Of a stretch of 64,000 nucleotides of DNA, positions 16,628 through 59,561 are shown piece by piece. Location of the stretch: positions 4,332 to 68,331 of the forward strand of contig JANWWP010000066.1 of assembly GCA_025055575.1 (NCBI GenBank), in the 5' to 3' direction. The stretch is from Flavobacteriales bacterium. Its GTDB lineage: Bacteria; Bacteroidota; Bacteroidia; CAIKAF01. How positions within the stretch are numbered: position 1 is the stretch's first letter; the number at the start of each line of letters is the position of its first letter. The position numbers and the translations under genes were made by a program. Below the pieces are notes generated by a model. The model saw only the letters and a list, made by a program, of their open reading frames with translations. It had not been told where the DNA came from and made no database searches.

Positions 16628-16638
16628 AAAAGGTCTTC

Positions 16639-17613: not shown

Positions 17614-17630
17614 CGGAAGAAATCGGCTGC

Positions 17631-19570: not shown

Positions 19571-19654
19571 ATCTTAAAAAATACTAAGATTTCAGGCAAC
19601 TATTCGTTAAAAAGAGGTCTACTAAAAAAGGTAAGACAAAGGATTACTATTTAA

Positions 19655-20830
19655 TTGTCACATTTTTGGGTCTTGGAAAATTCTGAAAAAAAGAAAATTT
19701 GGCTTTCCTCACCGCACATGTCTGGCTACGAGGAAGCCTATATTAAGGAAGCGTTTGCATCGAATTGGATCGCACCCTTGGGTCCGCATGTGGATGCTTT
19801 TGAAAAAGCGCTGTGTTCTTATACTGGAGCTCGGCATGCCGCAGCCTTATCCTCCGGTACGGCAGCTTTGCATTTGGCTTTAATGCTGTGCAATGTGCAG
19901 CGGGGGGATGAAGTGATTTGCCAGTCTTTTACCTTTTCAGCTTCCGCCAATCCCATTGTTTATCAGGGGGCAACTCCGGTATTTGTGGACAGTGAGGAAG
20001 ACACTTGGAATATGGACCCCCAACTGTTGGAAGAAGCCCTGAAAGATCGACTGGCACGCGGTAAAAAAATAAAAGCGGTCATCGCAGTGCATTTGTACGG
20101 CATGCCGGCAAAATTGAATGAAATTAAAGCGCTGTGCGAAAGGTTTGAAGTACCTTTAATTGAAGATGCGGCTGAGGCTCTGGGTAGTCAATACCGAGGT
20201 CGTGCATGCGGCACTTTTGGTCGTTTTGGGATTCTCTCCTTCAATGGCAATAAAATAATCACCACCTCTGGGGGCGGTGCCCTATTGGGCGAAGAGGCTC
20301 AAGCCATCGAAAAAGCCCGGTTTTTGGCTACACAGGCACGCGATCCCGCACCCCACTATCAGCATTCACATATCGGATATAACTATCGACTTAGCAATGT
20401 GTTGGCTGGAATAGGAAGAGGTCAAATGCAAGTGTTGGATGAACGCGTCGCTCAAAGACGTAGAAACTTCGATAGATATGTGCGGATTTTCTCTGGTTTT
20501 CCGGGTATTGATTTCCAACCGGAAAGTCCAGATAATTTTTCCAACCGCTGGCTCACTTGTATCCTGATAAATCCTGAGTTGGCAGGTTTTGACAGAGAAA
20601 AATTGAGGTTGGCTCTGGAAAATGAAAACATTGAAAGCCGTCCTTTGTGGAAACCCATGCACTTGCAACCGGTGTTTAAAGATGCGCCTGCCTATGGCGG
20701 CAGCGTCTGTGCCCGTTTATTTCAGGATGGATTGTGTCTTCCTTCCGGCTCCAATCTGAGCCCGCAAGATTGGGAAAGAATTGAAGAGACGCTGTATTCT
20801 GTTCTAGAATCTAATACGGTCTCACGATAA
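19655..20830 (+). CDS. DegT/DnrJ/EryC1/StrS-family PLP-dependent sugar aminotransferase (PglE/WbpE-like, nucleotide-sugar 4-aminotransferase)
   Basis: N-terminus LSSPHMSGYEEAYIKEAFASNWIAPLGPHVDAFEKAL closely resembles PglE-type enzymes. PLP lysine in SFNGNKIITT. Confidence 0.85.
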   Translation: MSHFWVLENSEKKKIWLSSPHMSGYEEAYIKEAFASNWIAPLGPHVDAFEKALCSYTGARHAAALSSGTAALHLALMLCNVQRGDEVICQSFTFSASANPIVYQGATPVFVDSEEDTWNMDPQLLEEALKDRLARGKKIKAVIAVHLYGMPAKLNEIKALCERFEVPLIEDAAEALGSQYRGRACGTFGRFGILSFNGNKIITTSGGGALLGEEAQAIEKARFLATQARDPAPHYQHSHIGYNYRLSNVLAGIGRGQMQVLDERVAQRRRNFDRYVRIFSGFPGIDFQPESPDNFSNRWLTCILINPELAGFDREKLRLALENENIESRPLWKPMHLQPVFKDAPAYGGSVCARLFQDGLCLPSGSNLSPQDWERIEETLYSVLESNTVSR

Positions 20831-23829: not shown

Positions 23830-26800
23830 ATGCACTTTATTTGCCCCGTGAAAAAATTCATACTTTCTTATCTAATAATCACGATTTTACATTTTAATTT
23901 TAATTCTAAAATATGGGGTCAATGCTTTGAAATTGAAAGCATTCTTGTGGATGCCTGTGGAAGTCCGGAGTCTAATAATGAAATGCTTATCTTCAGAGTG
24001 GGCAATACACCCCTTAATGTCAATAACATGTCGGTCACATGGCCGAATAATCCATTTTTGGGCATCTGCCAAAATGCTGTGACAGCCAACAATGTAGCTT
24101 GGTTCAATTCCACAGTGCAGGGTTGCGGATATTTTCTTGAACCGGTTAACGGTATTCTGCCGGCTAACAAGCGTGTGTTTTTGTTCACAAGCACAAATAT
24201 TGTGCAAAGTGCCCACACGTTTCCCAATCTGAATGATACTGTGATTGCTTTGTTCCAATGCCCGGGCGCCACTTCAGGCCATTTTGCCAACTATGACGGA
24301 AGTCCGGGTTTACGGACGACCATCATCACTTTTTCTCAACCCTCCCCTTGTTCTGACACAGTCACCTACAATAAAATCAATCTCATCAATATTAATGGCG
24401 GCTATGGCGGCGGCTCGGCTCTGCAGAACGGAGCCACCGTTCTGTTTGCACCCGATGGCACGCCCACCTATGTAAATCCCGGATGCAATCCACAGTATGT
24501 TCCTTTCACCCTCAGCATCAACAATCCTCCCGCCTCGGCCTGCCCTGGCGACCTCCTTTTCCTGAATGCTTCAGCCACAGGGCAGATCTTTTCGATCCAA
24601 TGGTCTGGAGGCAACGGAACCCTGCTGGGCGCCGGCCTCCTCAATCCCAATTACCAGGTGGTGCCTGCAGACGCCGGAGGTTTTACGATCAGTGTCACCG
24701 CCACGGATGTATGTGGTAACACCCTCACGCAGACGGCCAACATCAATGTGCCGGTTCAACAAAATCTCACGGTTTCTCCATCCGGACAAATACAGGCCTG
24801 TCAAGGGCAGTCGGTTACCCTAAATGCCTCGGGCGGCAGTGGCAGCTACAGTTGGAACAGTGGTCAAAATACAGCCCAAATTACTGTGGGTGTGCCCGGC
24901 ACTTACGTGGTGACCTCCTCAGATGCCTGCTACTCCTACACAGATAGTGTGTCGGTGGCATTTCTGCCTGTTCCTACCCTTACACTCAATCCCAACGGCA
25001 ACCAAAACTTATGCCAGGGCAATACGCTGCAACTTACGGCTTCTGTGAATACAGGCACTCCTGTCTGGTCCACGGGCCAATCCGGTAATTCAATATCCGT
25101 GAGCACCGGTGGCACCTATTCTGTGAGTGTTTCTAATAGTTGTGGAACAGCTTCGGACTCTGTTCAAATTACAGTTACTAACGCGCCTTCTCTGAGTGTT
25201 TCGCCGGCCGCCACAGTCCAAATCTGTGCAGGTCAATCCCAAACCATCACGGCTTCCGGAGCTCAGGCTTACGTGTGGTCCACAGGGGCCTCGGGGGCTT
25301 CGGAAACATTCAGTCAAACCGGTACTTTTTGGGTGGCCGGATCTAACGCCTGCGGCACGGATACCGTGAACATCACGGTGAACCAAGGCCAAGCCCCAGT
25401 GGCCGAAATTTCTTTTCAGGGTGACACCGTACTCTGCCCAGGCGAAACCTTAACGCTCACCTCGGTCAACGGATCCTCCACAGACCAATGGAGCACCGGG
25501 ACGGTGGGAAATCAAACCACCATCACGGCAGCGCCGGTGACAGTGACGCTCACGGTGAGCAATGCCTGTGGTACCAGCACCGATGTCGTCTCGATTAGCG
25601 CAGGCACCTTGCCCGTGGCGTCCATCACCACCTCCACAGGCGGCACCACACTGTGCAGTGGCTCCAGTCTCACACTTACAGCTTCGGGTGGAGATACATA
25701 CCAGTGGTCCTCAGGCGCCACGGGTGCAACACTTAATGTGACGACGGCCGGTACTTTCACCGTCACAGCATCGAACATTTGCGGTTCCGATACAGAAAGC
25801 CTGACCACGACAGTGATCAATCCGCCGGTGGCGCAGATTACACCCGGGGGAAGCACGTCTTTCTGTGACGGTGATTCGCTGCTTCTCACAGGTTCCGGTG
25901 GTGATACTTATACTTGGAGCACAGGCGAAACAACTTCCTCTATTTACGTGAGTTCAGGTGGAACTTACACCCTTACCGCCACCAACGCATGCGGGTCTAA
26001 TCAAGCCTCCATCACCTTAACGCTCATTCCGCTGCCAGAAGTCAACATCACCACGCCCGGCCCGGTGAATCTTTGCCAAGGGTCGCAAATTACGATTTCC
26101 GCCACTGCCAACGAACCTGTCTCGTGGAGCAATGGAGGTATCGGTCCTTCCACCACCGTATCCTCCGGCGGCACTTTGACGGCTTCAGCCACCAACGCCT
26201 GCGGCACCTCCACTTCCACCATTGTCATCAACGAAACCCCCTTGCCCCAGGTCAATATCTTACAAAACAGTCCCTTGGTGGCTTGCTCGGGAAACACCGT
26301 GCAGTTGGAGGCCATAGCCAACACTCCTGTGCAATGGAATAACGGCCTTACGACCAACACGGTTTCTGTGAATGCTTCAGGTACTTATGTGGTGACGGCA
26401 AGCAATACTTGTGGCACAGCCAGTGATTCGGTGCAGGTGATCATCACGGGGCCGCAGGCGGGTATTGTCGCTGATCCGCCCAGCGGCAATGCTCCTTTAA
26501 ACGTTCTGCTTTCAAGTTCTTCCACCGGCGCTACAGGGCTCTCCTGGAATGTTGCAGGGGCCACTTACACGTCCAATTCTTTCAATCATGTATTTTACGA
26601 GGCCGGCACATACGATGTAGTTTTGGTGGCGTCAGACGACAATGGCTGCAGCGACACAGCCACGCTTAAGATAGTGGTGGGCGACCAGTTTGAGGTATTC
26701 ATTCCCAACGTTTTCACGCCCAATGGAGATGGTATTAACGATGAATTTAAAATTGTTGCCACGGGAGTTAAATTATTTCGATGCACCATCTTCAACAGGT

Positions 26801-26964
26801 GGGGCAATGAAATATTTTCATGGGATGACGTCAACGAAGGTTGGAATGGGAAATCCGTTTTCGGAGGACGTGCCCCCAGCGGCGTGTATGTGTTTGTTGC
26901 TGAAATTACTAACCTTTCTGGGGACATCAAATCTCTCCGAGGCCACATCACTTTGTTTGAATAA
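23830..26964 (+). CDS. Large secreted adhesin-like protein with tandem Ig-like repeats and a T9SS type-B C-terminal sorting domain (gliding-motility-associated CTD)
   Basis: C-terminal FIPNVFTPNGDGINDEFKI... is the hallmark of the type-B CTD. About 9 tandem ~77-aa repeats with the pattern LCxGxxLTLTASGGxxYxWSTG...GTYTVTASNxCG. Confidence 0.7.
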   Translation: MHFICPVKKFILSYLIITILHFNFNSKIWGQCFEIESILVDACGSPESNNEMLIFRVGNTPLNVNNMSVTWPNNPFLGICQNAVTANNVAWFNSTVQGCGYFLEPVNGILPANKRVFLFTSTNIVQSAHTFPNLNDTVIALFQCPGATSGHFANYDGSPGLRTTIITFSQPSPCSDTVTYNKINLININGGYGGGSALQNGATVLFAPDGTPTYVNPGCNPQYVPFTLSINNPPASACPGDLLFLNASATGQIFSIQWSGGNGTLLGAGLLNPNYQVVPADAGGFTISVTATDVCGNTLTQTANINVPVQQNLTVSPSGQIQACQGQSVTLNASGGSGSYSWNSGQNTAQITVGVPGTYVVTSSDACYSYTDSVSVAFLPVPTLTLNPNGNQNLCQGNTLQLTASVNTGTPVWSTGQSGNSISVSTGGTYSVSVSNSCGTASDSVQITVTNAPSLSVSPAATVQICAGQSQTITASGAQAYVWSTGASGASETFSQTGTFWVAGSNACGTDTVNITVNQGQAPVAEISFQGDTVLCPGETLTLTSVNGSSTDQWSTGTVGNQTTITAAPVTVTLTVSNACGTSTDVVSISAGTLPVASITTSTGGTTLCSGSSLTLTASGGDTYQWSSGATGATLNVTTAGTFTVTASNICGSDTESLTTTVINPPVAQITPGGSTSFCDGDSLLLTGSGGDTYTWSTGETTSSIYVSSGGTYTLTATNACGSNQASITLTLIPLPEVNITTPGPVNLCQGSQITISATANEPVSWSNGGIGPSTTVSSGGTLTASATNACGTSTSTIVINETPLPQVNILQNSPLVACSGNTVQLEAIANTPVQWNNGLTTNTVSVNASGTYVVTASNTCGTASDSVQVIITGPQAGIVADPPSGNAPLNVLLSSSSTGATGLSWNVAGATYTSNSFNHVFYEAGTYDVVLVASDDNGCSDTATLKIVVGDQFEVFIPNVFTPNGDGINDEFKIVATGVKLFRCTIFNRWGNEIFSWDDVNEGWNGKSVFGGRAPSGVYVFVAEITNLSGDIKSLRGHITLFE
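24770..26450 (+). repeat. Tandem in-frame ~230-bp coding repeats (Ig-like, SprB/HYR-type, with a conserved Cys pair) inside the T9SS adhesin gene
   Basis: Visible periodicity in the translated ORF. The boundaries are approximate. Confidence 0.55.
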
Positions 26965-32370: not shown

Positions 32371-35300
32371 TTACTCATGAGCGGATACGTTACCGGAAGC
32401 ATTAAAGATCCAAGACCTAAGCTGGCTGTTTTCTTGTTTTAATTGCTTTAATTCTTGCTCTAACTGAAGGACCAATTTTTCGAGATATTCCTGTTTTTGA
32501 GCTGCCTTTTGGCTTCTCTCGTTCAAGGCTTGAATGCCTAAAAGAGCCACCCCGGCCACATCAGAAGCCGCCAGAGAATGAGAGGCTCCCGGTGCGTTTT
32601 GAACCCCTGTATGAAAGGCAGAGAAGAAATCTTCGGCATAGGGCCCGATGTGATATTCATCAGATTCTTTATAAAACCAACCTTCCACTTTTAGTTGGGA
32701 TATTTTTTGAAGCACTTCGTCCGGAACCAAGGCCGTGAATCTGTCTTTTTTGCCGCGCGTGGAAACGTTTGTCCAGACTCCGCCAGCTGAAAGATAGGCG
32801 CCATTTCCATTGCTGCTGTTCGTACCCACATGGATGGGGTGGTCCCCATCGAAACGATTGACCACCAAAAAGCCGGATGGGCTGCCTGATCCGCTTCCAA
32901 AAAAGTACACGCGATGGGTTTCAGTAACAGTGGGGGAAACGTTTTGTCCAAAAACAAGATTGAAAGAAGCATTTGCCGTATTACCAATTCCGCCCAGAAC
33001 CGTGCTGTAACCACCTGATACTACGTTATCCTGCCCTCCAATAACAGAGCCATAAGAAGCGGAGCTATAGATGGCGTTATTTGTGCCACCGGCTATGGTA
33101 CCACCAGAGGCTAAAACCGAATTATTGTCACCGCCTCCCACTGTGGCATAATCATTGTCAATCTGGTTATTAGACCCACCTGAAATGGTGCCTGTGGTCC
33201 ACCCCTCATTAATGACATTATTGTATCCACCCGAAATTACGTGGTAATAGTCCGTCCCTCCGCTGCCTCCAATTTGATTGAACGCACCGCCGCCGATACA
33301 TGAATAATATCCGTTCACGGAATTATTTGCTCCCCCTGCAACCACTGAACCTTCATAATTTACGAAATTGGCGTTACCCCCGCCTATGAAACCATAATCT
33401 GATCCAACAAGATTACCCTGGCCCCCTGAAACCGCACCATACTGCGAAATCACTTGGTTATCGGAGCCACCCCCAATAAATCCATAAGGCCCTCCGGAAT
33501 TGATGCTGTTATTAATGCCTCCAAATAGGGCAGAACCATATGAATTGGCGTCATTAGAATAGCCACCCCCGATGGAGGCGAACTGTCCAGCTACAGTGTT
33601 TGTAGACCCTCCCAACAATGCGCTTGAGTTTCCAGTAGCACTATTTAATATGCCTCCAGCAATCACCGAGTAAGTGCCGCTGGCAGAATTATTTGCCCCC
33701 CCGCCGATGGATGAAGTATTCCCTGTGGCAAAGTTGGAAGATCCCCCAGCCACCGTGGCCGTTGTGTTGGAAGCCTGATTTTGAAATCCTCCTGCCACCA
33801 CGGAAGCCCCTCCCGTAGCCTGATTCTGGTATCCACCTCCCACTGCGCTGTATATGGCGGCACTCGAATTGCCTTGACCTCCTCCAATGAAGCTGTTGTC
33901 GCCTGAACTGGTGTTGTTAAGGCCTCCGGCCACCACCGCGTCGGCTCCACTGGCCGTGTTGCGCCGGCCACCAGAAATGACCGCGTGATTCCCGGATGCC
34001 ACTTGTGTGGCTGACATTCGATCTATTTGCCAATCCACTGCCCTAAGACCCCGTGGATTCCCACCGAGGTCCCTTTGGATGCTCCAGGCCGGAGCAGAAA
34101 ATCCCGGAGGATTCAAAATCAGTGAATTTTGGTTTTGGACACGCAACTGGAGGGGTTGATTGTCCAGCGTTCCCACAAATGCCGCCGTGCCAGATTGAAG
34201 ACCAATATTACCATTCACGACGAGGCGTTCACTGGGACTTGTGGTATTTATACCCACATTCCCCCCGCTTGTCACACGGAGTCTTTCACTATTATTGGTT
34301 CTGACAACCAGCGGATTGGCATCCGTGGTTCCCAGAAAATTCGTGGTAGGATCGGTTCCACCATTCCCATTCAGCAGCCAACCACTTCCACCGCCTCCCA
34401 GAACCGAAGGGTCTAACCAGGACAAATTGCCACTGCCATCCGTCTGAAGAATTCCAGCGGAAGGCGTAGTTACCGGAGACAATGTAGAAGGCCAAGTGTA
34501 GGTGATGTTTGAAGTTTGACTTTGGGCCCTGAAAGCTGTGTACTCAGCGCTGCCGCTGGCATTGGAGGTGGGTTCATAAAAACGCAATTCCCGGGCTGTG
34601 TTGTCTCGGTTGTAGAGCCAAAGATTAACGTCTACGAAGGCTGCAATATTAGAGAATGAACTTAAGTTGGTGGAAGTTGGAGTAATCTGTCCACTATAGC
34701 CAAAACTATAACTTCCAAGAGTGAGCCTTTGTCCTCCAGCGATAGCACTGTATGCTCCTGAAGCAGAATTGTGCGCGCCACCGCATACAACACTGGTGTT
34801 TCCAGAAGTCTGATTGTTGCTGCCTCCCCCTATAAAACTGTGGTTGCCAGGGGCCTGGTTACCGCCTCCCCCAGAAATTGTGGAAGCATATCCATTGGCC
34901 ACATTCACGCCCCCACCTCCTACTGTTGCATATTCACTACTGGCAACATTGGACCTACCGCCGGCAACCGTGGTGTAGTAATGCGAACTTTTATTGTATA
35001 TGCCCCCGCCGATGACACTCGCATATCCGCTAGCCACTTCGTCCAGGTTCGCTCTGGCACTTTGCAAATCCACAGCATGCTCCCCTCTTGTGTTTCCCGT
35101 ACCGCGTTGAATACTCCAGTTGCCTGGTGAAGTACCGGGTACATTCATTCGAAACACCTCGGTGTTGTTGGCGCGGAATACAATTGGTTGATTATCAGTA
35201 GTTCCTATAAAATTTGTGGCCGGATTCGTACCGCTGTTACCCGTTAGGTTCCAAAAGTTGCTATTAGTCCACACAGGAGTGCCCGCTCCACCTATCGTCA

Positions 35301-36153
35301 GAATTTGATTTGCCGTACCTGGAGCCAACCAGGTGGGGGGCAGGGAAGCGCCTGAAGAAAGGAGCAAACTACCGTTTAATCCGGCAGAGTTGTTAGGCAT
35401 GAAAGCATTATCAAGGCGAAGATTTCCGCTCACATGAAGACGCTCTGTCGGAGTGGAGGTACCCACCCCAACGTTACCTGAGGCTGAAATCCTTAAACGT
35501 TCGTTACTATTGGTTGAAAAAGCCAACTCATTGGCAGCGGCCCTGTACATACCCATGCTGGTCGTAGAGTTAAATCGAAAGGCAGGGACAGAAGCCGTCC
35601 CGTCGTTGGCAATAAATCCACTCTCGGCCCGCACCCCCCCAGCCACATGCAACTTATGACTGGGGGATCCGGTGACTCCAATCCCCACAGAACCCGAGCC
35701 TGTAAACCGAAAATCAAAACCAGCCTGGGCAATATCTGTGTTTTGAAGAAGCGTACCGCCCAGCTGAATATGGCTACCCGTCATTGTGAGCCCATTGTCG
35801 GCCGTCACGTTGGCTACACCATTTTGAAGCCGAGTCCATTGAGTGCCATTCCAATAATAAAATCCAGGCGTCACATTCGTCGGAGGAGTGCCCGCCGTGG
35901 CGGTATTGTAAACCAAAAGGCCTGTAGCGCAACAGCTCACCACGGTTGTGTTGTCCAAAGTTCCTGTGAGAGCAAGCCTTGGAACCAACACACCACGATT
36001 CCCCGCCTTGATATCTAACTGAGCGCTGGCATCCGGAGAGGATCCGTCCGTATTTATACCCACATTTTGACCCAAGAGGCCAAAGGGCAAAGTTATCAAC
36101 AAACCACTGTAAAAAATTTTATTCAAAGTGTAGTTATTATTTTTTATTTTCAT
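32371..36153 (-). CDS. Surface fibre protein with phage-tail-fibre-like architecture: signal peptide, long Gly-rich YadA-head / Hep_Hag-like repeats, C-terminal peptidase-S74 intramolecular-chaperone domain and coiled coil
   Basis: Repeats of the form NxASGxYSxIgGGxxNxAsGxxSxVaGG across aa ~370-1000. C-terminus STRGKKDRF...IGPYAEDF...SDVAGVALLGIQALNERSQ...LEQELKQLKQENSQL matches the S74 auto-cleaving chaperone domain of phage endosialidase / L-shaped tail fibres. Confidence 0.65.
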   Translation of the reverse strand: MKIKNNNYTLNKIFYSGLLITLPFGLLGQNVGINTDGSSPDASAQLDIKAGNRGVLVPRLALTGTLDNTTVVSCCATGLLVYNTATAGTPPTNVTPGFYYWNGTQWTRLQNGVANVTADNGLTMTGSHIQLGGTLLQNTDIAQAGFDFRFTGSGSVGIGVTGSPSHKLHVAGGVRAESGFIANDGTASVPAFRFNSTTSMGMYRAAANELAFSTNSNERLRISASGNVGVGTSTPTERLHVSGNLRLDNAFMPNNSAGLNGSLLLSSGASLPPTWLAPGTANQILTIGGAGTPVWTNSNFWNLTGNSGTNPATNFIGTTDNQPIVFRANNTEVFRMNVPGTSPGNWSIQRGTGNTRGEHAVDLQSARANLDEVASGYASVIGGGIYNKSSHYYTTVAGGRSNVASSEYATVGGGGVNVANGYASTISGGGGNQAPGNHSFIGGGSNNQTSGNTSVVCGGAHNSASGAYSAIAGGQRLTLGSYSFGYSGQITPTSTNLSSFSNIAAFVDVNLWLYNRDNTARELRFYEPTSNASGSAEYTAFRAQSQTSNITYTWPSTLSPVTTPSAGILQTDGSGNLSWLDPSVLGGGGSGWLLNGNGGTDPTTNFLGTTDANPLVVRTNNSERLRVTSGGNVGINTTSPSERLVVNGNIGLQSGTAAFVGTLDNQPLQLRVQNQNSLILNPPGFSAPAWSIQRDLGGNPRGLRAVDWQIDRMSATQVASGNHAVISGGRRNTASGADAVVAGGLNNTSSGDNSFIGGGQGNSSAAIYSAVGGGYQNQATGGASVVAGGFQNQASNTTATVAGGSSNFATGNTSSIGGGANNSASGTYSVIAGGILNSATGNSSALLGGSTNTVAGQFASIGGGYSNDANSYGSALFGGINNSINSGGPYGFIGGGSDNQVISQYGAVSGGQGNLVGSDYGFIGGGNANFVNYEGSVVAGGANNSVNGYYSCIGGGAFNQIGGSGGTDYYHVISGGYNNVINEGWTTGTISGGSNNQIDNDYATVGGGDNNSVLASGGTIAGGTNNAIYSSASYGSVIGGQDNVVSGGYSTVLGGIGNTANASFNLVFGQNVSPTVTETHRVYFFGSGSGSPSGFLVVNRFDGDHPIHVGTNSSNGNGAYLSAGGVWTNVSTRGKKDRFTALVPDEVLQKISQLKVEGWFYKESDEYHIGPYAEDFFSAFHTGVQNAPGASHSLAASDVAGVALLGIQALNERSQKAAQKQEYLEKLVLQLEQELKQLKQENSQLRSWIFNASGNVSAHE

Positions 36154-47902: not shown

Positions 47903-48691
47903 GTGACCAACCCGAAAAAAAATGGTATCTCACCGGGGGAAAGTTGCTGTATGAAAAAGGAAAAATCCGGAACCTGTCAGAAAAAAATTCCTGATCTGGC
48001 ACACAGAATTGTTTACGAAGACAACCATCTTCTGGTGATCAATAAATGGTCTTCCGAAATCGTTCAGTCGGATAAAACCGGAGACCTTCCCTTGTGTGAA
48101 CAGGCAAAGTCTTTCTTGAAAACAAAGTATCAAAAGCCTGGACAGGTTTTTTGTGGGGTGGTGCATCGGCTGGACCGCCCGGTGTCGGGGTTGGTGCTAT
48201 TTGCCAAAACAGGAAAAGCCTTGGCGCGGTTAAATAAATTGCTTCAGGAACGTCAAATCCGGAAGTTTTACTGGGCGCTCACACGGCAGGCTCCCCCTCA
48301 GGATGCAGGAATCCTCGAAGGCTTTCTGACGCGCAATAAACGCTTGAATAAAAGTTTTTTTTCTCCGACGGAGTCCCCTGAGGCTCTTTCGGCTTCTCTG
48401 GCATTTAAAGTCCTCCACAGGTTTGACCGTTTAACTCTTTTAGAAATTGAATTATTCACAGGTCGCCACCATCAGATACGCGCATCTTTGGCTTTTTTGA
48501 AGTGCCCCGTGGCCGGTGACGTCAAATATGGGGATCGAAGGGCCTTGAGAGACCAGTCTATTGCCCTACATGCACGAAGGCTCGAACTGGTCCATCCCGT
48601 CAGCGGGGAAAGACTTCTTTTGGAAGGCCCTTGTCCCTCGGGCGGCATTTGGGAATCCGTAGGCTTATGCAATGAAGGAGATCCTTATTAA
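47903..48691 (+). CDS. RluA-family pseudouridine synthase
   Basis: HRLDRPVSGLVLFAKT catalytic-Asp motif. Confidence 0.8.
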   Translation: MTNPKKNGISPGESCCMKKEKSGTCQKKIPDLAHRIVYEDNHLLVINKWSSEIVQSDKTGDLPLCEQAKSFLKTKYQKPGQVFCGVVHRLDRPVSGLVLFAKTGKALARLNKLLQERQIRKFYWALTRQAPPQDAGILEGFLTRNKRLNKSFFSPTESPEALSASLAFKVLHRFDRLTLLEIELFTGRHHQIRASLAFLKCPVAGDVKYGDRRALRDQSIALHARRLELVHPVSGERLLLEGPCPSGGIWESVGLCNEGDPY

Positions 48692-48743
48692 CTTTGCGGC
48701 CCGAAAATTGCATACAACCCCTGTGTTAAATACTAATTCCATC

Positions 48744-49301
48744 ATGAAATTCATTTTAAGAAGCGTCGGTTTGGCTGGTTTCTGTGCTGTATTCTTAATT
48801 GCCCGCCCCTGCAATGCCATAGCTCAAAACAAAAAGTTCGGCCACATCAATTCCGAAGATATCATTCGTCTGATGCCGGAGTCTGTGGAAGCCGACAGCA
48901 CGCTGGCCCGATTCGAAAGAGAACTTCAAAATGAACTCTACGCCATGTACAAAGAACTGGAAGACCTTGCCAAGGACTACCGGGATAAGTTTAAAGAGAG
49001 AAGTGAAGCCGTAAATCGCATTAAAGAAGAAAACATCCGCGACAAGCAACAAAAATTCGAAGATACCCAGCGTATTTTCCAGCAGGAAATCATGGAAAAA
49101 CAACAGAAAGTCTTCGCGCCGATCAAAGAAAAATTTGATAAAGCCGTGCGTGAAGTGGCAAAAGAAATGGGTTTATCCTATGTTTTTGACAGCAGCATGG
49201 GCACCTTCATCTACTATGATGAAAGCGATGATATATCGGCACAAGTGAAAAAGAAACTGGGGATCTCTTCCTCTGGCACACCGCCCTCCCAAAATAAATA
49301 A
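48744..49301 (+). CDS. OmpH/Skp-family periplasmic chaperone
   Basis: Signal peptide (MKFILRSVGLAGFCAVFLIARPCNA), then a highly charged coiled-coil-rich sequence. About 185 aa. The track ORF begins upstream at 48672. Confidence 0.65.
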   Translation: MKFILRSVGLAGFCAVFLIARPCNAIAQNKKFGHINSEDIIRLMPESVEADSTLARFERELQNELYAMYKELEDLAKDYRDKFKERSEAVNRIKEENIRDKQQKFEDTQRIFQQEIMEKQQKVFAPIKEKFDKAVREVAKEMGLSYVFDSSMGTFIYYDESDDISAQVKKKLGISSSGTPPSQNK

Positions 49302-49362: not shown

Positions 49363-50559
49363 GTGCCCATGGGTTGTGACGGCGCGTGCGATGCGCGGGT
49401 CAAAATTGGGAATACCCCGGTTGCAGGATGCGGAAGCTCCGGCCGGTGCGGCACAAGCACTTGTAACAAGCTCAACACCTACGATTGGTTTCCGGCCGAA
49501 ATATTTGAAGACCGGCGGAAAGCATTTCCCTGGGTAGAAGTGCGCTTCAAAAACACCCGTAAGGATTTTTTTCTGAATACTGTGGGTTTCCGCCTTCGGC
49601 AGGGAGAAGTTGTGTGTGTAGAGGGCGCTCCTGGCTTCGATGTGGGCGTAGTGTCCCTGACGGGGCCTTTGGTGCGCCTGCAAATGAATAAATTGAACCT
49701 GGACCCAGAAAAAATGGTGGAGGCAAGGAAAATTTTGAGGCCCGCACGCCAGTCGGACGTGGACCGCTGGCAGAACATCATCCGGCAGGAGACAGAGTTC
49801 TTGAAAAAAGCCCGGGAAATCGCTTCTGAATTGGCTTTGGACATCAAAGTGAGCGATGTGGAAGCCCAAGGCGACGGCACAAAAGTGATTGTGTATTTTT
49901 TTTCGGAGGAAAGGATTGATTTCAGGGAAATGGTGAAAAAGCTGGCCCATAGTCTAAAAATGCGCGTGGAAATGCGGCAAATCGGGGCCCGGCAGGAAGC
50001 CGGCCTCATGGGCGGGTTGGGGAGTTGTGGCCGCGAACTCTGCTGTGCCACCTGGCTGAGGGATTTCAGAACTGTGACCACCAGCGCTGTGCGCTACCAA
50101 TTTTTAAGTATCAATTCTCAGAAACTGGCCGGGCAATGCGGTAAATTGAAATGTTGCCTGAACTACGAGCTGGATATGTACCTGGAAGCTTTTCAGGAAA
50201 TGCCTTCCTACAAAACAGCTTTGCATTTTGAGCAAGGAAAAGCCGTCGCAGTAAAGGTGGATATTTTCAAGCGTCAAATCACCTACGAGAGCCTGTGGCA
50301 GCCGGGTCATTTTTTCACGCTGGATGAAGCTCTTATCCTTTCGGTGATGGAAGCGAATAAACGGGGAGAAAAACCTGCGGCTCCGGATGTTTCTGCGCCG
50401 TCCGTGGTGCAGCGTACGCTTCAAAACATGGAAGATTCCTTGGATTTTGTCCTGGAAAGCCCTGCTGAACTGAATGCGGAGCATTCCCAGTCAAATCAAA
50501 ATTCCAAGAAACACCGACATGGGAAAAAACCAAAACGCAAATCCAACCCCAATGAATAA
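49363..50559 (+). CDS. PSP1-domain protein (YaaT-like)
   Basis: N-terminal Cys cluster (GCDGAC...GCGSSGRCG...C...LNTYDWF). PSP1 C-terminal signature ELCCATWL...CGKLKCCLNYE. Confidence 0.8.
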   Translation: MPMGCDGACDARVKIGNTPVAGCGSSGRCGTSTCNKLNTYDWFPAEIFEDRRKAFPWVEVRFKNTRKDFFLNTVGFRLRQGEVVCVEGAPGFDVGVVSLTGPLVRLQMNKLNLDPEKMVEARKILRPARQSDVDRWQNIIRQETEFLKKAREIASELALDIKVSDVEAQGDGTKVIVYFFSEERIDFREMVKKLAHSLKMRVEMRQIGARQEAGLMGGLGSCGRELCCATWLRDFRTVTTSAVRYQFLSINSQKLAGQCGKLKCCLNYELDMYLEAFQEMPSYKTALHFEQGKAVAVKVDIFKRQITYESLWQPGHFFTLDEALILSVMEANKRGEKPAAPDVSAPSVVQRTLQNMEDSLDFVLESPAELNAEHSQSNQNSKKHRHGKKPKRKSNPNE

Positions 50560-51064
50560 GTCCGTAACGCGGCGGCTGCTTGGATTTGTAGCGTTTTCAA
50601 TTTTCCACATTACCGGATGCAAAAAAGCTCCTTATTACGAAAAAACAGTGGAAATTCCCCACGCACAATGGAAAGAAACGGACACCTTGCGTTTTACATT
50701 AGCGAAACCCGACACCGGGATGCGCTATACATTAAGCTTGGGGTTCCGGATTGGCAATTCCTATCCCTATTCTAACCTGTACATTATTTTCATTTCGCGT
50801 TTTCCAGATAAACGCTTTTCTCAAGACACCCTGCAGTTTCTTTTATCGGATGCGCGCGGCCGGCCCACGGGAAATTGTTCAGGGAAAGTGTGCGATTACA
50901 ATTTTGACTTGCGGAAAAATCTGAAGTTTCCCTTGCATGGCGATTACATATTTGAGGCGGTGCAGGCCATGCGCACTCCAAACGGCAATTTGGCTGATGT
51001 GAGGGCTCTATATTTGCGGGTGGACCCAGATGCGCCACCCGCCAGTGTGTCTCCTCGCCAGTGA
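50552..51064 (+). CDS. gldH: Gliding-motility lipoprotein GldH-like (about 170 aa)
   Basis: Lipoprotein signal LLGFVAFSIFHITGC. Its size and its position between the PSP1 gene and a PBP1A gene match the conserved Bacteroidetes gldH neighbourhood. Assigned from context and memory, not from a motif. Confidence 0.5.
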   Translation: MNKSVTRRLLGFVAFSIFHITGCKKAPYYEKTVEIPHAQWKETDTLRFTLAKPDTGMRYTLSLGFRIGNSYPYSNLYIIFISRFPDKRFSQDTLQFLLSDARGRPTGNCSGKVCDYNFDLRKNLKFPLHGDYIFEAVQAMRTPNGNLADVRALYLRVDPDAPPASVSPRQ

Positions 51065-53395: not shown

Positions 53396-54871
53396 ATGGG
53401 GGTAATCATCCGGCAAAGCGCCAGAAATCTTATTTTTAATTATGGTGGCTTTGCGCTGGGCGCTTTCAATACCCTTGTCCTGATGCCCCGCTACCTTTCA
53501 CGGGAACAGATTGGGGTCTTGAATACTTTCACTTCTTATTCCTGGATTCTGGCCACCATATGCCTGTTCGGCATGCCTCTTGTCATCGTACGCTTTTATC
53601 CCGCTACGGAGGGCATACAACGCCGGCAACTCATCCAGTCGGCCGCCACCCTACCCTTATTGCTGGCCATCACGGCAGCCCTCGCAGGCCTCCTGTTTCC
53701 ACAACTGGTGACCCTTGTGGTACCGAATCCAGAGCCCATTTTTTTGCGCTATCACTCCTGGATATTTTTTATGGTGATAATGCACGTGGCCTTCGAAATT
53801 GTGGCCGCCATTCTAAGGTCCGAACTCAGGACAGCCCCGCCGGTCTTTTGGCGCGAAGTTTTTTTAAGGGTCTTCAACCTGGTACTATACCTTGCCTACG
53901 GCGCCGGATTATTTGATTATTCTATGCTGGTGGGCGGCTTCGCCTTGTCATCGGCCGTCTTGCTTTTGGGATTGATAAGCCATGTGCGCTCCAAAATCGG
54001 ATTTAACCCAGGCCTTCACTTTAAAAAGGAATGGTTAAAGTACGGGAGTTATAATTTGATTGGGGCCAGTTTGGTTTTTGTTGTGTATCAATTGGATATC
54101 GTGATGTTGCACCGCTATGGGTATTTAAATTTGATTGCAGTGTATACCATAGCCATGTTTATGGCTTCCACCATTCAGCTGCCTTTCAGGGCTTTTTCCG
54201 TGGTGGCAGTTCCTGTGCTGGCCAAAGCCTTCGCAGCCCACGATCTGAAGCAGGTGGGCCAGATTTACCGGAGAAGTTCTGAAGTCATGTTGGTGGCCGG
54301 CGGGGCCTTATCCTTATGGATCCTTTGGTGTGCCGAAGATTTTCGGTACTTCCTGCCTGCGGACTACCGACCCCATCTTGTGGCTCCCTTAGGGTTCCTT
54401 GTGCTGGCCAAATGGCTCGACATGGCCATGGGGCTCAATGGCGCCATCATCAACCAATCCCACCACTACAAGTTTGATATATGGGCCAACCTGATACTGC
54501 TTGCCACAGCCCTAGTTTTTAATGTTCTTCTCATACCTTCCATGGGTGTGCCCGGGGCTGCCCTTGCCACTTGCATCAGTGTTTTTCTGTACAATGTGGT
54601 GCGCTATGTCTACATCATTTTTCGTTTGGGCATCCATGGTTTCGGCTGGAATGCCCTCCACATAGCCCTGTTTTATGTCATTTCGTGGTGGACCCTCACA
54701 CGTATTTCTTTTTCGGGTCATCCGGTAGCGCTCATCTTTCTGAAAACGGTCATAACAGCCCTTTTAGTAGGGATTTGGATATGGGTTTTAAAACCCTCCA
54801 GAGAAGTCTGGGTCCTGTTTCAAAATACCATAAAATCTTTAAAAAATACAGAAATAAAAAATTTATTTTAA
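53396..54871 (+). CDS. MOP-superfamily polysaccharide-biosynthesis protein (Wzx-like oligosaccharide flippase)
   Basis: About 12 TM helices. N-terminal RQSARNLIFNYGGFALGAFNTLVLMPRYLSREQIG is typical of the polysacc_synt family. Confidence 0.7.
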   Translation: MGVIIRQSARNLIFNYGGFALGAFNTLVLMPRYLSREQIGVLNTFTSYSWILATICLFGMPLVIVRFYPATEGIQRRQLIQSAATLPLLLAITAALAGLLFPQLVTLVVPNPEPIFLRYHSWIFFMVIMHVAFEIVAAILRSELRTAPPVFWREVFLRVFNLVLYLAYGAGLFDYSMLVGGFALSSAVLLLGLISHVRSKIGFNPGLHFKKEWLKYGSYNLIGASLVFVVYQLDIVMLHRYGYLNLIAVYTIAMFMASTIQLPFRAFSVVAVPVLAKAFAAHDLKQVGQIYRRSSEVMLVAGGALSLWILWCAEDFRYFLPADYRPHLVAPLGFLVLAKWLDMAMGLNGAIINQSHHYKFDIWANLILLATALVFNVLLIPSMGVPGAALATCISVFLYNVVRYVYIIFRLGIHGFGWNALHIALFYVISWWTLTRISFSGHPVALIFLKTVITALLVGIWIWVLKPSREVWVLFQNTIKSLKNTEIKNLF

Positions 54872-54990
54872 AAATAGATTTTTCCAAAATGAAAAAAAGA
54901 CTATAGGCCATGAATTTTGAAAATATTTTCAATCTAATAACCTAAAGATTAAATAATTTCCACTATCCTTGACGACTGTTTTTTGACCAC

Positions 54991-56103
54991 ATGAAACCAT
55001 TGGCTTCAGGCAAAGATCCCCAGTCAAAAACTTTTTTCCGAACCCCTAAAATAGATTGGCCCAAATTAATTCCCTTCATAGCCTGCACAGCCCTCGTTTT
55101 TTCAGCAGAGAACTACCTGTCATCCGCATTACCGGATACCCTAATTTATCGTTTTCCCCTGACGCACAATCAGGTACTCAGTGGGTCGTACCTTTTCACT
55201 TCGCTACTTTTTCTTTTCTTCGGATATCTGTACTTTAGGAAAGGTGATTCAATCCTTAAATATAAAAAATTCCTGCCCATAATGTTAGGAATTTTCAGTG
55301 CTCTGGCCGCGGCACTGCTTTTCATAAAAAACGTTGTTTTTTTTTGGTTTGCTTCCCTTCTCATTCTGATTGTCTGGGTGCATTTACAAATTCTTGCAAT
55401 GGAGGCTTTTGCAAAATATGCATCCGCCCGCATCATGAGCATGGCTTTCGGATATTATTTCTTAGTTATATGTATATTCAGTAGCGGTTTCTCGCTGCTT
55501 TTTCTGGTACTATTTAAGAACTTTTCAGGAATTTGGATTTCGGCCGCCTGTGCTCTGATGGGTATCATTTTAATATCAAAATCCCCAAAATTTAACTTAG
55601 AAAATTCAGAAGAAAATATTCCGCCCAAGCGGAATACGAAACTATTTTTTCAATTTTTAATAACTTTTCTGTTTGGTTTAATGGCCGGCTTTGCCTGGGG
55701 AATTCCGGAAATTGAACTGCCCGCCTTGGTGAGGGGCCATGGGGCCCAGGAAATCCTTTTTAGTGTGAACTCATTATATCTTTTTTCCCTGGCTTTCCTT
55801 GGATTTTTTGCCTGGCCGTCGGGAATTGCACAAAAATACCGGGATAGTGATATTATGTTTTTAGTTTCTTTCCTGATAGGTTTAATAATTTATATTACAA
55901 TTATATCTTTTCAAGAAAATCCATTTCTTACGCTTTTATTACTCGTTTTTTTCTTAGCTTTTTTAAGCAGTTTGGTCGTTGCCGCGTGCACCTCCACGGC
56001 CAAACGCATTCAAATAACGGAGAAGAAGGGCGCCTGGATGACCGGCGCTTTGCTTTGGAGTGGATTTATGCTCGGACGGGCTCTTGCTGCATTTTTTCTA
56101 TGA
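54991..56103 (+). CDS. Polytopic membrane protein (about 10 TM), low GC, no recognised family (possibly Wzy-like or a transporter)
   Basis: Hydrophobic helices throughout. AT-rich codon usage unlike its neighbours. Lies adjacent to the Wzx-like gene. Confidence 0.4.
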   Translation: MKPLASGKDPQSKTFFRTPKIDWPKLIPFIACTALVFSAENYLSSALPDTLIYRFPLTHNQVLSGSYLFTSLLFLFFGYLYFRKGDSILKYKKFLPIMLGIFSALAAALLFIKNVVFFWFASLLILIVWVHLQILAMEAFAKYASARIMSMAFGYYFLVICIFSSGFSLLFLVLFKNFSGIWISAACALMGIILISKSPKFNLENSEENIPPKRNTKLFFQFLITFLFGLMAGFAWGIPEIELPALVRGHGAQEILFSVNSLYLFSLAFLGFFAWPSGIAQKYRDSDIMFLVSFLIGLIIYITIISFQENPFLTLLLLVFFLAFLSSLVVAACTSTAKRIQITEKKGAWMTGALLWSGFMLGRALAAFFL

Positions 56104-56905
56104 GCTCTCCGTAGAGCGCCGCCACCTTGTCAGAGGACTTTCGGGCCGCCTCTAAAACCATGTCATGCGACACTTCCTCCACCTGGCCTTCGATACCCAG
56201 ATCGGTGATAACACTTAGGCAACAGACTTCCATACCCAAATAACGGGCCATTATCACTTCAGGCACCGTGCTCATACCCACCGCATCGGCTCCTATGATG
56301 CGGATGTAGCGATACTCTGCCGGTGTTTCAAAAGCCGGTCCACGCACCCCGGCATACACGCCTGAATGCAGGTGGATGCCTTTTTCCGTGGCGATACTCC
56401 GGAGCAGCTGATTGAGTTTGTTGCTATAGGCTGCGCTCATATCGGTGAAACGCGGGCCCAGATTGTCATCGTTTTCACCGCGGAGCGGGCAATCCCCCAT
56501 CAGGTTGATGTGGTCTTCCACCAACATAATGTCTCCTACCCTAAACGATGGATTCACGCCACCTGAGGCATTGGTAATGAGTAACTTTTTCACACCCAAC
56601 AGGTAGGCAAGCATCACGGGTGCCACCACCTTGCGCATGGGAAGCCCTTCGTAGTAATGCAGTCTTCCTTCAAAGATCAGACCCGTGCGCTGTCCGTAAC
56701 GGCATACCGACAAACGGCCGGAATGACCTTTCACACGGCTCTTCGTAAACCCTGGAATTTCGGAGTATGGCACCGAATGAATTTTTTCAAAATATTCCAC
56801 GACGGAGGCCAAACCCGAGCCCAGGATGATGGCGAATTCGAACTCTAAAAGCCCGGATTGCTGCTTAAAATTTTGCGCAAAATCTCTAAGTTCTGAAGGT
56901 ATCAT
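56066..56905 (-). CDS. Purine nucleoside phosphorylase (PNP family I, PunA-type)
   Basis: IILGSGL, GHSGRL...GLIFEGRLHYYEG and GMSTVPEVI motifs. Start taken at Met 29 of the track ORF (about 279 aa). Confidence 0.8.
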   Translation of the reverse strand: MIPSELRDFAQNFKQQSGLLEFEFAIILGSGLASVVEYFEKIHSVPYSEIPGFTKSRVKGHSGRLSVCRYGQRTGLIFEGRLHYYEGLPMRKVVAPVMLAYLLGVKKLLITNASGGVNPSFRVGDIMLVEDHINLMGDCPLRGENDDNLGPRFTDMSAAYSNKLNQLLRSIATEKGIHLHSGVYAGVRGPAFETPAEYRYIRIIGADAVGMSTVPEVIMARYLGMEVCCLSVITDLGIEGQVEEVSHDMVLEAARKSSDKVAALYGELIEKMQQEPVRA

Positions 56906-57926
56906 GTATTTTCTGGTAGAATAGTTCTTCCTGGTGGACATCTTTAAACTGGAACTCCGAACGGGCCACCCAGAGGATGTGTTTTCCAAGCCCTGACTTC
57001 CAGCTATCGAGTTCCCTAATCTTCACCCAATCTTTTTCTGTAGTGACCAAGGCTTTATTCTGAAAAGGCAACATGTCAAATTCTGTGACAATCTCCCGAA
57101 AATCGTTTTCTGAATAGGTATGATGGTCTGCAAACATACGCTTTCCGCAAATTTTTCCCCAAGGTCTTAAGGTATTCAGAAAATGTTCCGGGTGGCCGAT
57201 ACCGCAAAACACAAAAAAAGCATCTCCTTCCGGTCGTTCAAAAACATGGCCTCCCGGAAAAGCCTGAAAACCTGTGATGCAAACTTCCCCTTCTAAAACT
57301 AGGGTACGGGGATGAAATTGTATTTTTGAAACCTCTGGGTAAGGGGGTTGAAGTTTGGTCCACACCACCACATCGGCCCTTCTCAGGGCGCTCAGAGGCT
57401 CCCTCAGGCGACCGGCCGGAAGAAGCCAGCGCGGAAACCGAATATCCCGACCACTCAAAAGCACGACCTGAAGCCCAGGTGTGACAGCTCTGTGCTGGAA
57501 TGCGTCATCCAAAATGATGAGCGCCCCCTCTCCGGTCATTTGCAGAGCTTTCTCCACACCGGAAACCCGATTTTCGGCCACCACCACAGGCACTTCAGGA
57601 AATCTCCGGGCGACCATCACGGCTTCATCCCCCCCGTGCCGTGTGGAAGTTTCCGGACTTACCACCAGGGCCCCGCGGGTGGTCCGCCCGTACCCCCTGG
57701 ACACATACGCCACAGCCTTATCCTCGGCTCTAAATTTTCCTATCAAATGGATGCAAAAAGGGGTTTTTCCACTGCCACCGACGGAAATGTTGCCCACACC
57801 AATCACGGGACTGGAAAATGTTTTAGATTGAATCCATCCGGCATCGTACAAAGCATTCCGAATGGCGACAGCCAGTGCATACACCCAGGAAAGTGGCCAT
57901 AAAAGCCCTGCTAAAAAAGTTTTCAC
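56886..57926 (-). CDS. lpxK: Tetraacyldisaccharide 4-prime-kinase
   Basis: P-loop GNISVGGSGKTP, about 345 aa. Confidence 0.85.
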   Translation of the reverse strand: MKTFLAGLLWPLSWVYALAVAIRNALYDAGWIQSKTFSSPVIGVGNISVGGSGKTPFCIHLIGKFRAEDKAVAYVSRGYGRTTRGALVVSPETSTRHGGDEAVMVARRFPEVPVVVAENRVSGVEKALQMTGEGALIILDDAFQHRAVTPGLQVVLLSGRDIRFPRWLLPAGRLREPLSALRRADVVVWTKLQPPYPEVSKIQFHPRTLVLEGEVCITGFQAFPGGHVFERPEGDAFFVFCGIGHPEHFLNTLRPWGKICGKRMFADHHTYSENDFREIVTEFDMLPFQNKALVTTEKDWVKIRELDSWKSGLGKHILWVARSEFQFKDVHQEELFYQKIHDTFRT

Positions 57927-58051
57927 CTAGGATTGGGTCTTCTGTGGGTTGAGAAAACGCAAAAAAAAGTCCCGGCAAACATAATTTAGGAAAAAAATTT
58001 TTTCTTATTTAGCAGAAATTAATAATTTTGTCCTTTGAACAGAACCACTTT

Positions 58052-58393
58052 CCTATGAAAAAATCCCTGTTTTTACTTTCTACCGCACTGATATTGAGCA
58101 CTTCGGCTCTTTTCTCAACCCCTGTACTCCCACCCGCTATTAGACCTTTTGCTGTGGAAGGCCTTCAGCAGGAACGTGCCATTCCGGCCCATAGCTTTAT
58201 ATATATTTCCAGCAAATATGCGCTTGAAATGATAGAAATTTTCGATGATCAGGGCAACCTGTACGAGAAAATTCCACTTCAGGCCACCACATACTATGCT
58301 CTGGATATCCGCAAATGGCCTCTGGGCGTTTATACGGTTAAAGTGACGAACAATATCAGCACCCTCAAAAGAAAAATTTTAAAGGTGCGTTAA
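58052..58393 (+). CDS. Very small secreted protein (113 aa) consisting essentially of a signal peptide plus a T9SS type-A C-terminal sorting domain
   Basis: MKKSLFLLSTALILSTSALFS signal. C-terminal ...EMIEIFDDQGNLYEKIPL...LDIRKWPLGVYTVKVTNNISTLKRKILKV matches the Por_Secre_tail pattern (iFDxxGr..., GvYxVKV, Kxxk). Confidence 0.5.
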   Translation, partial: PMKKSLFLLSTALILSTSALFSTPVLPPAIRPFAVEGLQQERAIPAHSFIYISSKYALEMIEIFDDQGNLYEKIPLQATTYYALDIRKWPLGVYTVKVTNNISTLKRKILKVR

Positions 58394-58414: not shown

Positions 58415-59335
58415 TCAAATTCTTCCTGAAGAGGCCGGTATCGATACCGGCCTTTTTTGTTGGTTTTTCACCTCTTCAAAAAGCGTGTGGATGAGACCGT
58501 CGGATAAGCCCAGTTTTGGCACCACAATGCTAGAGACGTTCAAACGGTCGGCTATTTTCAGGAACACCTCGGCGGCGGGTACAATCACGTCGGCCCTGTC
58601 CTGATTGAGACCCAATTTTATCAACCTATCCTCGTAAGAAAGGCGGCAAAGCTGCTGATACACTTCTTCCAGTTTTTTTCGCTTCAGAATTTGGCCCTCT
58701 TTCAATCCGGCCAAACGATGCAATTTGTTGATATTGCCGCCGGTGCCTATAATCCGGATACTGCGTTTGCCCCGAAACAGATTCAATTGACGAAACATGC
58801 GTTTCCATTCCGATTTAAGATTTTGTCCTTTGAGCATGCGCAAAGTCCCAATATTATAGGATCCCGAAAATACCACGTGGCCATTGGCATAGAGGGTAAG
58901 CTCTGTACTGCCGCCGCCTACATCCACATACAAATACTGAAACTTTTCAGGCAGATTTAAATCGGATAGATTGGCAAAGATTAACCCGGCCTCAGACTGG
59001 CCATCAATAATTTGTATCTCGAGACCTGTTTGGTAATAAACCTCCTGTACTACCTGAAGACTGTTAGCGGCTTCCCGCATAGCGGATGTGGCTACAATCC
59101 GAAAATGATCGCACTGGTGCACTTCCGTCATTAGGGCAAAAATCCTGAGCGCCTTCACCAGAGTCTGAACTTTTTCAGGACTGATTTTGCCTGCTTCAAA
59201 AACTTCATCCCCAAGCCTGACCGGCAGCCGGACCACAGAGATTTTTTTGAAAACCGGGCCGGAAGGCCCTTCGTACACATTATAAAATATAAACCGGACG
59301 GCGTTAGAGCCAATGTCGGCTGCTGCAAGCCTCAT
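58415..59335 (-). CDS. Ppx/GppA-family phosphatase (exopolyphosphatase / guanosine pentaphosphate phosphohydrolase)
   Basis: N-terminus MRLAAADIGSNAVRF (the actin-like ATPase fold of Ppx/GppA). Start taken at Met 10 of the track ORF. Confidence 0.8.
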   Translation of the reverse strand: MRLAAADIGSNAVRFIFYNVYEGPSGPVFKKISVVRLPVRLGDEVFEAGKISPEKVQTLVKALRIFALMTEVHQCDHFRIVATSAMREAANSLQVVQEVYYQTGLEIQIIDGQSEAGLIFANLSDLNLPEKFQYLYVDVGGGSTELTLYANGHVVFSGSYNIGTLRMLKGQNLKSEWKRMFRQLNLFRGKRSIRIIGTGGNINKLHRLAGLKEGQILKRKKLEEVYQQLCRLSYEDRLIKLGLNQDRADVIVPAAEVFLKIADRLNVSSIVVPKLGLSDGLIHTLFEEVKNQQKRPVSIPASSGRI

Positions 59336-59561
59336 GGGGCGCAAAGGAAAGGATTTATACATGCCAACGCTCCGATTTCGGAAAACGTTTTATTATGCCC
59401 CAGAAATCTCATAAAAAATGTTATTGTTCCCTTCTCGTGTGAGATTTCGGCAGAAAAAGTGATATCCCGCCATCGGGCCATTTTTGGAGACCCTCAAAGA
59501 AAAAACTCGAAAAACTTTGGAATGAGGTTCTCCTTGGATTTTTTTTAACAAAAAGAGAAAT

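Follow-up and report, generated by a model that had tools for sequence, protein, structure and literature searches.

A 64,000-nucleotide stretch of a Flavobacteriales genome (positions 4,332 to 68,331, forward strand, of contig JANWWP010000066.1, assembly GCA_025055575.1; hereafter the window) carries a small gene whose predicted product is little more than a signal peptide followed by a type IX secretion system (T9SS) C-terminal domain (CTD) of type A. Codon and protein alignments indicate that this domain is conserved far beyond the need of a sorting tag: very strong purifying selection acts on it, whereas the remainder of the protein drifts, the constraint is much stronger than that on neighbouring housekeeping genes, and an ordinary CTD encoded in the same genomes shows the opposite behaviour. 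That the gene is real and encodes a stand-alone CTD fold is as good as certain. With good, if lesser, confidence we assign its function to the domain itself, as opposed to any cargo or peptide.

Identity and conservation of the domain

The domain accounts for 73 of the ~91 residues of the mature protein and ends at its last residue. AlphaFold2 models residues 41-112 as an all-beta sandwich of seven strands, with predicted local distance difference test (pLDDT) scores of 90-97, and residues 1-40 as disordered, with pLDDT <50 over the signal peptide region. Type A CTDs are compact Ig-like beta-sandwiches of about seven strands (PMC11285876), and the predicted fold agrees with this description. 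The signal peptide consists of MKK and a 17-residue hydrophobic stretch and contains no Cys, so there is no lipobox; the pattern of MKK plus hydrophobic core is common to all homologues, although the signal sequence itself differs. In the linker that follows, P23 is the sole residue that is invariant in the family alignment (A1).

Residues 44-108 match PF18962 (Por_Secre_tail) with E = 9.5e-6 and 26.3 bits, just below the gathering cut-off of 27 bits, and the match to TIGR04183 reaches 22.1 bits, where the cut-off is 23. The initial annotation had read the open reading frame (ORF) as only a signal peptide and a type A CTD, nearly devoid of cargo, and had named these two profiles as the check; both were found, each slightly under its curated threshold, and the reading holds. 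A third family, DUF3244 (PF11589), scores 19.6 bits against a gathering cut-off of 25. PF18962 is matched by all nine family members at E ≤ 0.01 (best E = 7.7e-7), and DUF3244 weakly by eight of the nine (best E = 2.8e-4). When A1 was aligned by hhalign with a set of 15 canonical CTDs (A2; 10 from orthologues of a cargo protein of the window, 5 from remote matches), the probability was 99.1% (E = 5.6e-19, 70 aligned columns). Type A CTDs are marked by an N-terminal PxP motif, a DxG loop, a GxY motif and, close to the C-terminus, a Lys that hardly ever varies (PMC10994853). The counterparts of these motifs, AIPAH (for YPNPA), DDQG, LGVY and K107 at position -6, are all invariant in A1; in AIPAH the second Pro of the usual PNP motif is kept and the first is replaced by Ala. 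Profile comparison and the predicted model together show a domain that is homologous to, and is predicted to fold like, the type A T9SS C-terminal sorting domain.

What the protein lacks is a passenger, and in this it differs from proteins whose type A CTDs have PDB entries, such as RemA, NucA and FspA (8gl6, 8glk, 8glj) and mirolase (8qb1). Only ~18 non-conserved, disordered residues precede the CTD. The initial annotation had placed ~30 residues before a CTD of ~65 aa (amino acids); the linker is short, as it said, but shorter than it estimated, and the domain is longer. The protein also fits the layout of DUF3244 proteins, in which a signal peptide is followed by one Ig-like sandwich of ~90-100 aa.

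A codon alignment of the family was split at residue 40 into the CTD part and the signal peptide plus linker. Across the CTD part, the proportion of synonymous differences (pS) is 0.6-0.9, which is saturated, while that of nonsynonymous differences (pN) is 0.012-0.19. Where the synonymous rate (dS) could be estimated, in the window's own pairs and other close pairs, its ratio to the nonsynonymous rate (dN/dS) is 0.012-0.073; one distant pair with measurable dS, L016-L005, gives 0.12. For the signal peptide plus linker, pN is 0.5-0.66 and amino-acid identity between lineages is 6-35%.

Neighbouring genes provide a yardstick. Relative to the window, locus L013 retains 96% identity in the small-protein CTD, as against 51% in LpxK, 65% in PNP, 71% in Ppx and 72% in the desaturase. 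The corresponding values for L001 are 95% against 51%, 65%, 68% and 70%, and for L017 93% against 44%, 56% and 63%, the desaturase lying outside the latter locus. The most distant members (L016, L005, L008, L018) still share 77-79% of the CTD with the window; Ppx is at 63-67% in L018 and L008, and the desaturase at 68% in L008.

An ordinary type A cargo protein of 889 aa, encoded elsewhere in the window, serves as the control. Its orthologues share 39-65% of the passenger and only 19-37% of the CTD, so that the cargo CTD evolves much faster than its passenger, whereas the small-protein domain is 77-96% conserved across lineages. In P0020, a cargo orthologue from the same sample as L018, passenger identity is 65% and CTD identity 27%, versus 78% for the small-protein CTD. 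BLASTP of the small-protein domain against the 889-aa cargo found no similarity, and the domain is therefore not a recent copy of that CTD. In ordinary CTDs the motifs merely specify the fold, and the translocon-contacting surface is poorly conserved apart from one Lys (PMC10994853); near-total conservation in the small protein thus implies an additional constraint.

The family has 45 invariant positions, including polar residues placed alternately along the strands (S52, S53, K54, E61, D64, Q66, E71, K72, K87, K96, N99, N100, K107, K110 and R112), many of which are probably surface-exposed. Because the domain is frozen along its whole length, polar residues included, we infer that it must make specific contacts over much of its surface.

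Two other sources of the high identity were ruled out. Recent horizontal transfer is incompatible with saturated synonymous sites and with a diverged signal peptide and linker. Constraint at the nucleotide level, from an RNA or an antisense gene, is likewise incompatible with the saturated synonymous sites, and the window's ORF list holds no antisense ORF of at least 40 aa overlapping the gene. Scanned in full against Rfam with gathering cut-offs, the window gave zero matches.

The gene, its family and its neighbourhoods

From the ORF list and the sequence itself, the first ATG of the gene is at 58055 and the stop codon TAA at 58391-58393. The initial annotation had given 58052-58393 and 113 aa; the ORF is real and its end is correct, but the start at the ATG shortens the protein to 112 aa. 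An alternative in-frame TTG at 58028 would yield 121 aa; the homologues all begin at the MKK position instead. The gene occupies a 488-nt gap between two genes on the opposite strand, and the 128-nt spacer that separates it from lpxK is AT-rich and holds the promoter box. TAnnTTTG is the -7 promoter consensus of Bacteroidota, and such a box lies 30-48 nt 5' of the ATG in all nine orthologous loci; a sigma-70 promoter scan gave no meaningful match, as expected for this phylum. A GC-rich hairpin with a T-rich tract follows the stop codon in the inspected orthologous loci as well as in the window (Table 1).

The window's hairpin falls inside the last ~14 codons of the ppx ORF as listed (58415-58460). 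Either a bidirectional terminator is shared over the ppx 3' end or the true end of ppx lies earlier; the gene is called as 306 aa in L012 versus 315 aa in the window.

Table 1. Features of the small CTD gene and of related genes in the window
Feature	Position	Strand	Remarks
Small CTD-only gene, complete coding sequence, 112 aa + TAA	58055..58393	+	Monocistronic; from ORF listing and reading of the letters
Bacteroidota-type -7 promoter box, TAATTTTG	58023..58030	+	Read from sequence; 32 nt 5' of ATG
Predicted Sec signal peptide (signal peptidase I type), MKKSLFLLSTALILSTSALFS	58055..58117	+	Residues ~1-21, by inspection; cleavage site approximate
Variable Pro-, Ser-, Thr- and Ala-rich linker	58118..58171	+	Residues ~22-39, predicted disordered, pLDDT 43-53
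Type A T9SS CTD-fold domain	58172..58390	+	Residues 40-112 (73 aa), predicted seven-strand Ig-like beta-sandwich
Intrinsic-terminator-like 13-bp hairpin, then T-run	58428..58457	+	Overlaps 3' end of convergent ppx ORF
lpxK	56886-57926	-	Upstream neighbour of small CTD gene, divergent; intact
Ppx/GppA-family gene	58415-59362	-	Downstream, convergent to small CTD gene
Type A CTD cargo, 889 aa	40655-43324	-	DUF11 + DUF7619 + PF18962 (27.2 bits)
1044-aa protein with PKD and Ig-like domains	23830-26964	+	Type B CTD (CHU_C, 63.6 bits)
OmpH/Skp-like chaperone ORF	48672-49301	+	
GldH gliding lipoprotein ORF	50474-51064	+	

A search of 5.8 billion proteins returned eight homologue clusters at 56-95% identity. 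All nine orthologues are 107-114 aa long, counting one 151-aa call as an over-extended start. Given its eight clusters, a dN/dS far under 1, and promoter and terminator elements that are conserved, the ORF is far beyond a chance occurrence. The exact protein is present in NCBI as MCS6980290.1, MCX7649304.1 and MDW8432891.1, from metagenome-assembled genomes (MAGs) labelled 'Flavobacteriales bacterium', under the name 'T9SS type A sorting domain-containing protein'.

Some public gene calls appear to need new starts. The 151-aa call, P0002 (5001-5456 in L013/L014; 4622-5077 in L015), begins 39 codons too early and its extension crosses the promoter region; counted from the conserved MKK start, the protein has 112 aa. 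For P0003 (107 aa), the probable true start lies 5 codons upstream, at ATGAAAAAG.

The gene is found in three neighbourhoods. It sits between lpxK and ppx, followed by the desaturase gene, in the window, L012, L013, L001 and L017, with lpxK divergent from it and ppx convergent in each. In L008, L009 and L018 the order is topA, small CTD gene, ppx and desaturase, and in L005-L007 the gene lies downstream of a TonB-dependent receptor gene and upstream of a GT2 glycosyltransferase gene. Conservation and synteny in relatives had been suggested as a check, and the outcome is a stand-alone gene of 107-114 aa in all nine orthologues and all three settings. On this genomic evidence, it is a real, independently transcribed and self-contained unit that keeps its size through rearrangements.

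The most persistent neighbour is the Ppx/GppA-family gene, which is convergent in 7 of the 9 lineages examined. The nucleotide ppGpp is reported to repress T9SS genes in Porphyromonas gingivalis (mentioned in PMC12152298), and the adjacency of ppx may be plain synteny.

An exhaustive search of 1.84 billion representative proteins with a hidden Markov model recovered the family as a single cluster at 50% identity. The next genuine matches (E 4e-7 to 9e-4) are C-terminal CTDs of proteins of 318-618 aa and a few other short CTD proteins; P0016, with 160 aa and a signal peptide, is a short CTD protein. Two further hits of this search, P0009 and P0011, were rejected as spurious, since these tandem-repeat, adhesin-like proteins matched via many short stretches. 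Among 185,579 species genomes scanned in GTDB, the gene occurs in one MAG only, Flavobacteriales bacterium SKYG26. By these searches, the family is a lineage-specific derivative of the type A CTD, confined to uncultured Flavobacteriales.

Possible roles of a free CTD

So, what might a sorting domain do when there is nothing to sort? The absence of a conserved passenger, together with conservation of the domain across its whole length, including polar residues, points to the CTD as the functional product. Sec export and removal of the signal peptide would leave a protein of ~10 kDa, essentially a free CTD in the periplasm, which would act via partners that recognise CTDs. Two routes can be envisaged. 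The protein may act in the periplasm as a ligand, its abundance reporting or adjusting T9SS throughput, much as the CTD of PorA activates PorY, or it may be a dedicated ligand (pseudo-substrate) of the PorV/SprA substrate pocket, which buries ~40% of the CTD surface (PMC10994853). By analogy, a PorA-like signal or translocon ligand is a possible mechanism, held tentatively. The whole statement, of a stand-alone CTD protein working in the proposed manner, we judge to fall slightly short of an even chance. More speculative again is its sharpest form, a natural 'free CTD' in which a sorting domain has turned into a stand-alone periplasmic regulator, a minimal PorA counterpart that would report load to a sensor kinase or gate or prime the PorV/SprA pocket. 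Such a role would account for the near-complete freezing of its sequence, in contrast to the drift of ordinary CTDs.

PorA of P. gingivalis (PGN_0123), the smallest verified type A cargo in that species (PMC7712824, PMC12152298), is the best mechanistic analogy: a small T9SS-type protein with its activity in the CTD and not in the passenger. Its C-terminal 69 residues alone bind the sensor kinase PorY in the periplasm and switch on T9SS genes, and in 2025 the authors of that work predicted equivalents of this ligand in other Bacteroidota (PMC12152298). Both CTDs abound in basic residues and keep the last strand intact. The marks given for a signalling CTD are more than six strands, the last of them intact, and at least six basic residues (PMC12152298). 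The small protein shows all of these marks; its 73-residue domain has seven predicted strands and contains 11 Lys/Arg, of which 7 are invariant (K54, K72, K87, K96, K107, K110 and R112), but the marks are non-discriminating, since the ordinary CTD of the window has 8 basic residues. The suggestion in the initial annotation of a CTD decoy or regulator gains indirect support from the extreme conservation of the domain and from the PorA CTD as a precedent for a CTD ligand (PMC12152298).

PorA also differs from the small protein. It has 246 aa and a FimH-like N-domain, for which the small protein is too short, and the small-protein family is restricted to one uncultured Flavobacteriales lineage. 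A sequence profile search of the PDB, which should have covered 6KJK (the entry for the PorA N-domain, cited in PMC12152298), returned chance matches alone, at E of ~0.46 and above (exosome Csl4). Several observations weigh against a free-CTD regulator. No sequence relationship of the small protein to PorA emerged from that search, and it lacks the FimH-like N-domain; a family this narrow (one 50%-identity cluster, one GTDB genome) is not what one would expect of a core regulator when the machine spans the phylum; DUF3244 proteins share the fold; and genes for PorX, PorY, SigP, PorV and SprA were not found within the 64-kb window.

The alternative that survives best, though we consider it rather unlikely, is an ordinary, very small T9SS effector that is exported by SprA/PorV and acts outside the cell or on its surface, its CTD retained like those of the group III proteins PorU and PorZ. 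On that view, the beta-sandwich would owe its conservation to binding outside the cell instead of to contact with the secretion or signalling machinery. Such an effector would account for the full set of type A CTD features. T9SS effectors are said to range 'from very small proteins' upward (PMC10202324), and small CTD proteins are known elsewhere, among them P0016 and Fjoh_0547 of Flavobacterium johnsoniae. The latter is reported to be a CTD protein of 112 aa, of the same size and class as ours, that sprA and porV mutants still secrete (Lauber et al. 2018, as cited in PMC7712824). However, there is no precedent for a 73-residue domain that is both recognised and released by the translocon and functional externally, nothing in the sequence suggests a ligand site, and the three neighbourhoods offer no functional hint.

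Somewhat less likely than an effector is a periplasmic or outer-membrane beta-sandwich that is independent of the T9SS, a co-opted CTD fold comparable to the DUF3244 proteins of Bacteroides, which are known only from structural genomics (PDB 3d33, 3sd2, 4g5a). The shared layout described above would suit this reading, but the profiles favour PF18962 over DUF3244 by 26.3 to 19.6 bits, and the type A motifs, including the Lys near the C-terminus, are all kept and invariant. In addition, its closest distant homologues are bona fide CTDs at the C-termini of larger proteins, and the window encodes predicted T9SS substrates.

A carrier for a short secreted peptide, with the CTD as a tag and the ~18-residue linker released by PorU as the active product, is very improbable. 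The architecture permits it, and the Pro-rich linker has a roughly constant length (~15-20 aa); the initial annotation had listed a T9SS-exported small peptide among its options. Yet residues ~22-39 are essentially unconserved between lineages (identity 11-35%; 6-35% when the signal peptide is counted with them), while the supposed tag is almost invariant. This pattern is the opposite of a bioactive peptide on a generic tag, and the opposite of the ordinary-cargo control. As for the 3' remnant of a degraded cargo gene that had also been suggested, or a spurious ORF, only the short length speaks for it, and it is refuted to near certainty by the promoter-bearing 128-nt gap upstream, intact flanking genes on the opposite strand, a length of 107-114 aa kept across lineages and three neighbourhoods at saturated synonymous divergence under strong purifying selection (dN/dS ~0.01-0.07), and the lack of BLAST similarity to the cargo CTD of the window.

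Secretion context and significance

The organism probably has a working T9SS, as suggested by the gene content of the window: a type B CTD protein, the type A cargo, GldH and an OmpH/Skp-like protein (Table 1). Both CTD classes, A and B, are thus encoded inside 64 kb, and a Skp homologue, SkpA, is part of the extended T9SS translocon of F. johnsoniae (PMC10994853). The core components SprA/Sov, PorV and GldKLMN were not found within the window.

Other parts of the window hold features of separate interest. Large ORFs with no Pfam match at E ≤ 1e-5 lie at 32371-36153 (- strand, 1260 aa), 13592-15487 (+ strand, 631 aa) and 53396-54871 (+ strand, 491 aa), and the last of these is conserved in L012, where it likewise has no Pfam match. 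A very hydrophobic ORF of 370 aa (54991-56103, + strand), also without a Pfam match, lies in a low-GC stretch (54600-56100; GC 0.31-0.40 vs 0.50-0.58 in the flanks), and the corresponding position in L012, L001 and L013 holds genes of similar size that also have no Pfam match. The ORF could encode a polymerase- or flippase-like membrane protein, or be foreign DNA. A run of sugar-nucleotide genes at 15512-22788 (+ strand) resembles a lipopolysaccharide or O-antigen sugar cluster; it comprises a GDP-mannose 4,6-dehydratase, two epimerase/reductases, a 2-hydroxyacid dehydrogenase, a DegT aminotransferase and a Polysacc_synt_2 protein.

That small CTD proteins exist is already known, from Fjoh_0547 and from the 'very small proteins' noted among T9SS effectors (PMC10202324), and the protein described here had been annotated automatically. 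A literature search on CTD-only proteins or the smallest T9SS cargo found no useful discussion. What is new is the CTD-only gene as a conserved family, the constraint on its CTD above that on neighbouring housekeeping genes, and the opposite behaviour of an ordinary CTD in the same genomes. T9SS CTDs are usually seen as interchangeable address tags that are discarded after export. Free of any confounding passenger, the CTD-only gene offers a clean test, provided by nature, of what CTDs may do besides sorting. Its 45 invariant positions are a ready mutational map, and the ~10 kDa protein is a probe of how CTDs are read by PorV, SprA and sensor kinases. Should it prove to be only a tiny effector or a T9SS-independent sandwich, the result would be a modest one, a new and narrowly distributed family of small proteins. 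Should it instead be a free-CTD regulator, type IX secretion would have its first gene-encoded regulator made of a CTD alone.
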